From: Eledone cirrhosa
Lineage: Eukaryota
Assembly: GCA_964016885.1 (NCBI GenBank)
Contig: OZ024741.1
Span: forward strand, 226,858,001 to 226,922,000
Direction of reading: 5' to 3'
DNA: 64,000 nt
Positions 25,043 through 26,117 of this stretch are shown here, in pieces (within the stretch, counting starts at the first letter, position 1; each line of letters opens with the position of its first letter). The position numbers and the translations under genes were made by a program. The notes beneath the pieces were generated by a model that worked only from the letters and a program-made list of their open reading frames with translations, had not been told where the DNA came from and ran no database searches.

Positions 25043-25045
<3 letters not shown>

Positions 25046-26113
25046 ATGATAATAATGGAGCTGCGGCGTTGCAAATGGGTTACATATGAAAAAGTAAGTC
25101 CTTCATCAGTGACCCTCCAATCGTCCTAGGCATTTCATCGCTTTAAGGGCCATATACCTCAGGTTGGTGCGAACAACGGCTAAAAAAAGTCGCTGGGACA
25201 CGTAAATAAAGGGGACGTTAGGGTGAACAAACAAAATGGTTTAAGCAACAGAAAGTGAGAAGAAAGAGACAAGTCCCAGATTTCTATGAATATAAACTCG
25301 GTGAAATCGTGAACAAGAGAATAAAGACCATCAAACCTGGTTGAAATGTGAGCAAGGAAGGAATTTCGCACAGGTCTAACGGGGGGAAGAAGAAGGGGTC
25401 TGGTCTGCGAATTCGGTAAACATAAGTTCTGTGAAGTCGCAGACGAGAGAGAGAGAGAGAGAAAAAATTCATACCGGCTTGGCCAAAAGCGCGCGAGAAA
25501 AGAAATCGGACAGGTCAAACGGGAAGAAAGAGGAGGAAAGAGGAGGAGGAGGAGAGGTAGTGACAGAGAATGAGTGAGTGAAAGTTGAGGAGGAGGCTAA
25601 CAGAGAGAGAGAGACTGCTAGAAAGGGTAAAGATACAAAGAACGAAACAGACGGGTGGCAGCAGAGGAAAAAAAAAATATGTGTAAATATGATAATAATG
25701 GAGCTGCGGCGTTGCAAATGGGTTACATATGAAAAAGTAAGTCCTTCATCAGTGACCCTCCAACCGTCCTAGGCATTTCATCGCTTTAAGGGCCATATAC
25801 CTCAGGTTGGTGCGAACAACGGCTAAAAAAAGTCGTTGGGACACGTAGATAAAGGGGACGCTAGGGTGAACAAACAAAATGGTTTAAGCAACAGAAAGTG
25901 AGAAGAAGAGACAAGTCCCAGATTTCTATGAATATAAACTCGGTGAAATCGTGAACAAGAGAATAAAGACCATCAAACCTGGTTGAAATGTGAGCAAGGA
26001 AGGAATTTCGCACAGGTCTAACGAGGGGAAGAAGAAGGGGTCTGGTCTGCGAATTCGGTAAACATAAGTTCTGTGAAGTCGCAGACGAGAGAGAGAGAGA
26101 GAGAGAAAAAAAA

Positions 26114-26117
<4 letters not shown>
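25043..26117 (-). mobile_element. Non-coding tandem element (family F2, 643-nt period) with permuted hammerheads
   Basis: 25046 onward repeats at 25689, diverged relative of 16580-17688, (TA)n flanks. Confidence 0.78.
25741..25810 (-). ncRNA. Permuted-order hammerhead (copy 25098-25167 -)
   Basis: ccaacc-tg-aggtaT-A-tggccct-taaagcgat-GAAA-tgcct-aggac-ggttgg-agggtca-CTGATGA-aggac. Confidence 0.75.

Follow-up and report, generated by a model that had tools for sequence, protein, structure and literature searches.

A reversed-order hammerhead-like motif with a predicted kink-turn and two inserted helices in a non-coding repeat of Eledone cirrhosa, and whether it would fold as a single unit

Does a hammerhead whose strands occur in a permuted order need a second copy of itself to fold? 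The question is raised by a family of repeats, here called F, in a 64,000-nucleotide stretch of Eledone cirrhosa DNA (the window), which is animal DNA with many microsatellites, LINE fragments and Penelope-like element (PLE) fragments. The original prediction held that a distal helix abutting stem I would make a monomer sterically hard to fold, with cleavage restricted to multimers.

The motif occurs five times. At one locus (F2) its CUGAUGA element starts at 25752 and 25109 on the reverse strand, with a spacing of 643 nt; at the other (F1) it starts at 17201 and 17665 on the forward strand, with a spacing of 464 nt, and additionally at 16602 on the reverse strand. A pattern combining the core with its spacing has five matches in the 64-kb window and none in any of 100 shuffles, and the CUGANGA, GAAA and NUH core nucleotides are present and invariant in all five copies. 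Read 5' to 3', the strands follow each other as helix IV, hairpin V, the stem II 5' strand, helix P, block S, a 4-nt linker, block G, the partner of P, the stem I 3' strand, CUGAUGA, one A and the partner of helix IV, where block S comprises the stem III 3' strand, the AUA site and the stem I 5' strand. The features are placed as follows:

25043..26117, reverse: F2 insertion, a non-autonomous repeat of 1.67 units of 643 nt, with (TA)n at both ends
25741..25842, reverse: F2a, intact copy of the permuted hammerhead motif (helices IV, V, II, P, III and I, k-turn and core)
25817..25842, reverse: hairpin V (25817-25838), preceded by the helix IV 5' strand (25839-25842), both placed in the core at A9/10.1; hairpin V with two compensatory pairs
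25812..25815, reverse: stem II 5' strand, upstream of the motif; partner 25781-25784; invariant in 5/5 copies, without covariation within F
25805..25810, reverse: 5' strand of helix P, the distal helix of the original prediction; partner 25760-25765
25802..25804, reverse: non-bulged strand of the k-turn (3n, 2n, 1n), assigned from sequence with the consensus of McPhee 2014
25789..25801, reverse: block S; cut predicted between 25796 and 25795 by hammerhead analogy
25772..25784, reverse: block G (stem II 3' strand, U11.1, GAAA, stem III 5' strand)
25766..25771, reverse: bulged strand of the k-turn (L1-L3, 1b, 2b, 3b); bulge and 3b vary, G.A positions constant
25741..25759, reverse: stem I 3' strand, CUGAUGA, one A and helix IV 3' strand; compensatory changes in stem I
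25475..25685, reverse: inter-motif spacer of F2; in part a homologue (76-80%) of the 5' region of the F1 unit; public contigs cover it as well
25098..25199, reverse: F2b copy, C.A mismatch in helix P; predicted cut 25153|25152
17111..17212, forward: F1a copy, A.A mismatch in stem I; predicted cut 17157|17158
17575..17676, forward: F1b copy, intact; predicted cut 17621|17622
16591..16692, reverse: F1c, inverted copy, mismatches in stem III and helix IV; predicted cut 16646|16645

The hammerhead blocks of F are ordered S-G-C in every copy, and not in the circular C-G-S order of types I, II and III, which bears out the permutation originally proposed. The same holds for the helix ccaacc/ggttgg (P): it adjoins the stem I 3' strand with zero linker in all five copies and is fully paired in four, the copy at 25109 having a C.A mismatch. 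What had been missed was a k-turn consensus and the fact that stem II takes its 5' strand from upstream. The bases after CUGAUGA pair with the stem II 3' strand at one A-U only, and the sole conserved partner of the latter lies upstream; a stem II built from the bases after CUGAUGA and the strand before GAAA was rejected, as it yields one pair only. Since the 5' strand of stem II lies upstream, CUGAUGA and stem II are separated by helices IV and V, which occupy A9/10.1. Stem II itself has 4 bp plus a possible A-U pair and is invariant within F. We also discarded a type II interpretation based on a GAA upstream in F1c, because the other four copies have no such GAA.

Stem III has 5 bp, is non-palindromic, and is continued by the 6-bp helix P. 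The 3x6 loop that joins the two fits the k-turn consensus (3-nt bulge, G.A, A.G) in 5/5 copies, sharing with the standard k-turn the 3-nt bulge followed by G.A and A.G pairs (McPhee 2014, PMC4382518, in the part available). The 3b.3n pair is C.U in F2, A.A in F1 and U.U in one variant, and it is uncertain whether the A.A and U.U forms would fold with metal ions alone. No natural hammerhead with a k-turn was found among the articles listed in our literature search. Downstream of the F2a motif, 25725-25732 (reverse) could by eye pair, with wobbles, over the cut site at 25793-25800 (reverse), as a possible inhibitory fold.

How well do the copies agree with this fold? Across the five, 95.8% of 165 cells are paired, a value reached by 0/500 shuffles, in a test which covers only two subfamilies and is weak taken alone. 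In stem I 97% of the cells are paired and in stem III 96%. Compensatory changes occur in stem I and hairpin V, while stems II, P and IV are without covariation in the five window copies, two of which are fully paired and three of which carry mismatches.

Family variation was drawn from public contigs, namely 2170 of run X1 and 51, 16 and 4 from three other organisms. The variable motif columns amount to 11/75. Four of these constitute two partner-matched stem I pairs (P=0.009); the others are one stem III G.U to A-U change, single columns in the linker and at U11.1, and four that fall within the k-turn bulge and 3b. Among the listed variants no column of the core or of the k-turn G.A pairs varies (P=0.07); both tests are post hoc and the variants unphased. 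U11.1 is replaced by C at 5% of depth in X1 and 10% in X5, and a partner change is not among the listed variants, which counts against an essential A-U pair at this position. Hydra-clade PLE hammerheads have unpaired bases at the U11.1 position (the available part of Craig 2021 File S2, PMC8557442). At contig loose ends, one relative (25755, X5) carries the k-turn strand with another stem I strand and a second (25736, X6) has an altered core base. A 643-nt backward joint in the contig mapping was set aside as an effect of the rotated reference and not as a sign of tandems or circles.

Rfam yielded no match to the window at gathering score, and at E up to 10 its 23 weak matches all lie on flanking microsatellites, with none to a hammerhead. 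ViennaRNA, applied to the complete element, to a 643-nt circle and to the F1 tandem, predicted only hairpin V, with inter-unit pairing of 0.00-0.01; as the program handles neither pseudoknots nor k-turns, we treat its predictions as uninformative here. Pattern scans recovered no homolog among the matches listed, either in viral contigs (at least 120 loci; best score 11 against 13-22 for the window copies, as a contiguous-run score) or in metagenomes (at least 121 loci; best score 15 against 18-19 for the window copies).

The units that carry the motif are non-coding, with a longest Met-ORF of 62 aa. The F2 array holds just two motifs, and its repeats are 98.3% identical across 422 nt. The F1 locus (16573-17694) consists of an inverted copy followed by a partial tandem with two motifs, an arrangement described for PLEs in the sections available of Craig et al. 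2021 (PMC8557442). The unit of the inverted copy is without two deletions (28 and 23 nt) present in the 464-nt unit, so the unit length is not fixed. Hence, of the proposal of one motif per 643-nt or 464-nt non-coding unit, the spacings and the lack of coding capacity hold, but F2 has only 1.67 units and the F1 length is variable. F1b and F1c stop ~20 nt past the motif, close to the end of the element. Partial tandems, an inverted copy and (TA)n targets, as in PLEs and Naiads, are found at the F1 and F2 loci. Elsewhere in the window, a PLE fragment at 21098-22898 (forward) has RT and GIY-YIG domains split over two frames, and a 540-aa frame at 62310-63932 (reverse) resembles a PLE reverse transcriptase without a Pfam match. 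A broken L1/Tx1-like LINE, judged by its ORFs, occupies 51495-56705 (reverse), and long tandem arrays with periods near 110 and 38 nt lie at 31615-33731 and 37335-40490.

The closest match in block order is the type-SGC hammerhead, a non-circular permuted form with the order S, G, C that was found only in metatranscriptomes or metagenomes (Eckert 2023, PMC10085705). F shares with type-SGC/CSG RNAs (HRIMA-1) the reversed blocks, a short linker between stems I and II (4 nt in F), a helix tying the outer ends of those stems on their other sides, and the puzzle of how that helix reaches stem III. By analogy, the zero-linker helix P is best viewed as corresponding to the helix through which stems I and II interact in those ribozymes. 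F differs from them in three respects. Their stem II 5' strand directly follows CUGANGA, within 1-2 nt, whereas in F it is upstream with helices IV and V in between; a k-turn is not mentioned in Eckert 2023 (PMC10085705), whereas F has the consensus; and they come from metatranscriptomes or metagenomes, whereas F comes from an animal genome. Judged from its strands, F resembles the type-SGC hammerhead but lacks one defining feature, the unbroken block C. The mainly open-access literature searched gave no report of a two-helix insertion at A9/10.1, nor, among the articles listed, of reversed-order hammerheads in animals or Naiads; the part available of Forgia 2023 likewise has no description of an extra-helix hammerhead. 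The topology of F is new relative to this literature, though reversed-order hammerheads as such are already known.

The systems invoked by the original prediction fit less well. Minimal dimer-cleaving PLE hammerheads belong to type I, and their helix III is a palindrome of 1-2 bp (Cervera and de la Pena 2014, PMC4209133, in the part available). F is like them in its PLE context and in the extra nucleotide after A9; however, it has neither a 1-2 bp or absent helix III nor a palindromic loop, its stem III being stable, of 5 bp and non-palindromic. The analogy therefore fails, and any F dimer would need a different strand swap. Non-LTR retrozymes are PLE-derived non-coding tandem units defined by type I hammerheads, according to the available parts of Cervera and de la Pena 2020 (PMC7229834) and Li et al. 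2026 (10.64898/2026.07.22.740005). F parallels them in its non-coding tandem units with one hammerhead motif each (two motifs per tandem locus), and in this sense looks like a retrozyme or Penelope derivative; in contrast, its motif is of S-G-C order and not of type I, and F is known here from DNA sequence.

More conventional hammerhead-like motifs are also present in the window. One at 10473 (reverse), downstream of an ORF at 10844-11812 (reverse) that is GIY-YIG-like in look but without a Pfam match, is a canonical minimal PLE-type hammerhead containing the CUGAUGA of F and its next five bases, and may hint at the origin of helix IV. At 6379, 15528, 20321 and 43720 (forward) and 15352, 43565 and 50488 (reverse), hammerhead-like motifs run from GAAA directly into (UA)n, where the microsatellite could supply a palindromic stem III. 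Additional cores of ordinary order lie in other repeats at 60082 and 42465 (reverse) and 43156 and 2087 (forward).

A more informative comparison is with Naiads, which are reported to be without canonical hammerheads, some being flagged 'HHR_core' or 'HHR_half_core' (Craig 2021, PMC8557442, in the sections available). We read by eye excerpts of File S5 of that paper, a file with 54 Naiad records; these comprised matches 1-15 and 25-49 of 62 for one core variant, 1-15 of 23, 4-17 of 43 and 4-17 of 25 for others, and some record ends. In these excerpts at least 10 of the 54 Naiad consensi have the F topology at their 3' ends with different stem sequences: those of Beroe, one Clytia, three near-identical Acropora, Morbakka-2, Pomphorhynchus, Paralithodes and two Octopus. 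Their stem II differs and spans 4-6 bp, and the stem I of Beroe is just 2 bp, again by eye. Both octopus consensi, one annotated 'no pLTR', additionally have a k-turn and a similar U-rich hairpin V. At least six nematode Naiad 3' ends in the excerpts have a type CSG form that is clean by eye, as against only two CSG examples in Eckert 2023 (PMC10085705), and the Limulus Naiad has an SGC-like form with a long loop. The Clytia, Pomphorhynchus, Paralithodes and Limulus records and one Pristionchus record were assigned via file order, and the counts leave out spider, ostracod, Euprymna and Saccoglossus, whose excerpts were parsed in part; some further records have no motif within their excerpt.

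Naiad PLEs also share with F a (TA)n insertion bias and a partial tandem with an inverted copy (available sections of PMC8557442). They differ in encoding an EN-RT, while F has no ORF and the window has no Naiad ORF linked to F; the likeness is one of structure, judged by eye. We infer that F may be a high-copy non-autonomous derivative of a Naiad-type PLE. The fold itself, with its likely spread across Naiads, is a stronger result than the multimer switch.

Can one unit fold by itself? We approached this with rough helix models that take textbook parameters and leave helical phases free. In a rigid model of the F monomer the best shortfall is 34.9 Å with a straight loop and 1.7 Å with a kinked one; the kinked form with intact helices never closed in 400,000 draws, but does so once 1-2 bp are frayed at the top of P. 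With flexible loops F closes with nothing melted, as do the octopus Naiad, Beroe and Clytia, while the Pomphorhynchus, Morbakka, crab and coral forms remain 3-17 Å short, such that 4/8 modelled forms close only with fraying; as monomers, Pomphorhynchus would have to melt 1-2 bp and crab and coral about 3 bp. The original view of a sterically hard monomer thus survives in the tight geometry and the failure of the rigid kinked model to close intact, but it overlooked the k-turn: as the kink shrinks the gap from ~35 Å to ~2 Å, sterics do not force a multimer in F. In these models the k-turn makes the F monomer borderline-feasible, and folding in cis would depend on the kink.

We favour, with a probability of about 0.55, a cis fold of the single unit with predicted self-cleavage. 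We counted for it the compensatory variants of stem I, the k-turn consensus in 5/5 copies, kinked closure, the likeness to the octopus Naiads and the cleavage of single-motif ribozymes, SGC forms cleaving during transcription and the SGC, CSG and GCS forms having rates of 0.004-0.19 per min (Eckert 2023, PMC10085705, in the main text of which we found no concentration test). Counting against it are the two-helix insertion at A9/10.1, which, if read correctly, breaks the block-C assumption of that study, the failure of the rigid kinked monomer to close intact, the forms that close only with fraying, the short and invariant stem II, the U11.1 variant, the small number of fully paired copies and the missing link to a Naiad ORF in the window. 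In such a fold stem III, the k-turn and helix P would first assemble into a rod. P would then be bent back at the kink, whereupon its flanks, the stem II 5' strand on one side and the stem I 3' strand with CUGAUGA on the other, would pair with their own unit's loop, where the cut site and GAAA lie, and helices IV and V would bridge A9 to stem II. The RNA would cut itself after the AUA triplet, probably slowly, and perhaps aided by a k-turn-binding protein or the element's own protein; one PLE hammerhead is reported to be protein-assisted (Frangione 2024, in the part available). By analogy with retrozymes, two cuts in a tandem transcript would yield a unit-length RNA (643 or 464 nt) that could be copied by a PLE protein.

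A zero linker usually signifies stacking of P on stem I, and this suits a two-copy ring better than a monomer. It is hence possible, though we consider it doubtful, that F obligately or at least strongly prefers to act as a multimer: each unit would form its own rod of stem III, kink and P, with its flanks completing the core on a neighbouring unit or a second RNA, P stacking on the partner's stem I and two k-turns closing the ring, so that only tandem transcripts or paired RNAs would be cleaved. Both window loci do have two tandem motifs, giving an effective partner concentration of 4e-5 to 5e-4 M, and hammerheads of metazoan PLEs and retrozymes are known to cleave as dimers in the parts of that literature available. 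A planar ring needs a kink angle near the stem I/II angle, which was within 10 degrees in 29% of draws, but the ring may clash sterically. The unkinked relatives fit it better than F does: the crab Naiad (stem III 10 bp, 1-nt bulge, P 5 bp) and the coral Naiad (stem III 13 bp, 7-nt bulge, P 9 bp) are 9-17 Å short as monomers, and with about 3 bp to melt the length of P does not track the height spanned. Yet three frayed base pairs would be affordable against two new helices, and autonomous Naiads of ~4 kb keep the geometry with one motif per copy. In F the kink nearly closes the monomer, with the octopus Naiads, Beroe and Clytia also closing in the flexible model, and the short palindromic helix III that explains known dimers is missing. 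A yet broader conjecture, which we regard as rather unlikely, is that Naiads and their non-autonomous derivatives across animal phyla carry unrecognised reversed-order hammerheads, opened at A9/10.1 by two helices, that cleave only when the flanks of one unit dock on the loop of another, the cephalopod-type k-turn, possibly with a Snu13/L7Ae-family protein, closing the two-copy ring.

The fold might also be conserved and not cleave at all, serving as a recognition site for a Penelope protein or as a start for reverse transcription, or being a decayed relic in these copies. A weak stem II, an unprecedented core insertion and the termination of F1b and F1c ~20 nt after the motif, near the end of the element, are consistent with this, as are the mismatches in 3/5 window copies; each window tandem combines an intact copy with a mismatched one, and therefore these loci may be decaying. 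Precedents exist in the available parts of the literature: 8/9 Xenopus retrozyme dimers failed to cleave (Li 2026, 10.64898/2026.07.22.740005), and in an anole PLE insertion did not need cleavage and RNA ends at the site were not found. However, no change affects the catalytic nucleotides or the legal NUH site in 5/5 copies or among the listed family variants, and by eye the catalytic nucleotides are kept in the excerpted distant Naiads despite different stems, which makes the absence of cleavage quite improbable.

If F cleaves, the range of non-circularly permuted hammerheads, so far viroid-like RNAs of metatranscriptomes, grows to include animal genomes, where they are present in high copy number; a new topology then breaks the rule that stem II must adjoin CUGANGA, and a natural k-turn exists inside a hammerhead. 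The kinked and unkinked natural versions would provide a handle on monomer versus multimer cleavage, the geometric puzzle left by Eckert 2023 (PMC10085705); were the multimer reading true, the ribozyme would read the tandem or paired state of its transcript. The lack of canonical hammerheads in Naiads was used to suggest that hammerheads may be dispensable there (Craig 2021, PMC8557442, in the sections available); reversed-order forms, if truly present, would instead account for that reported absence.
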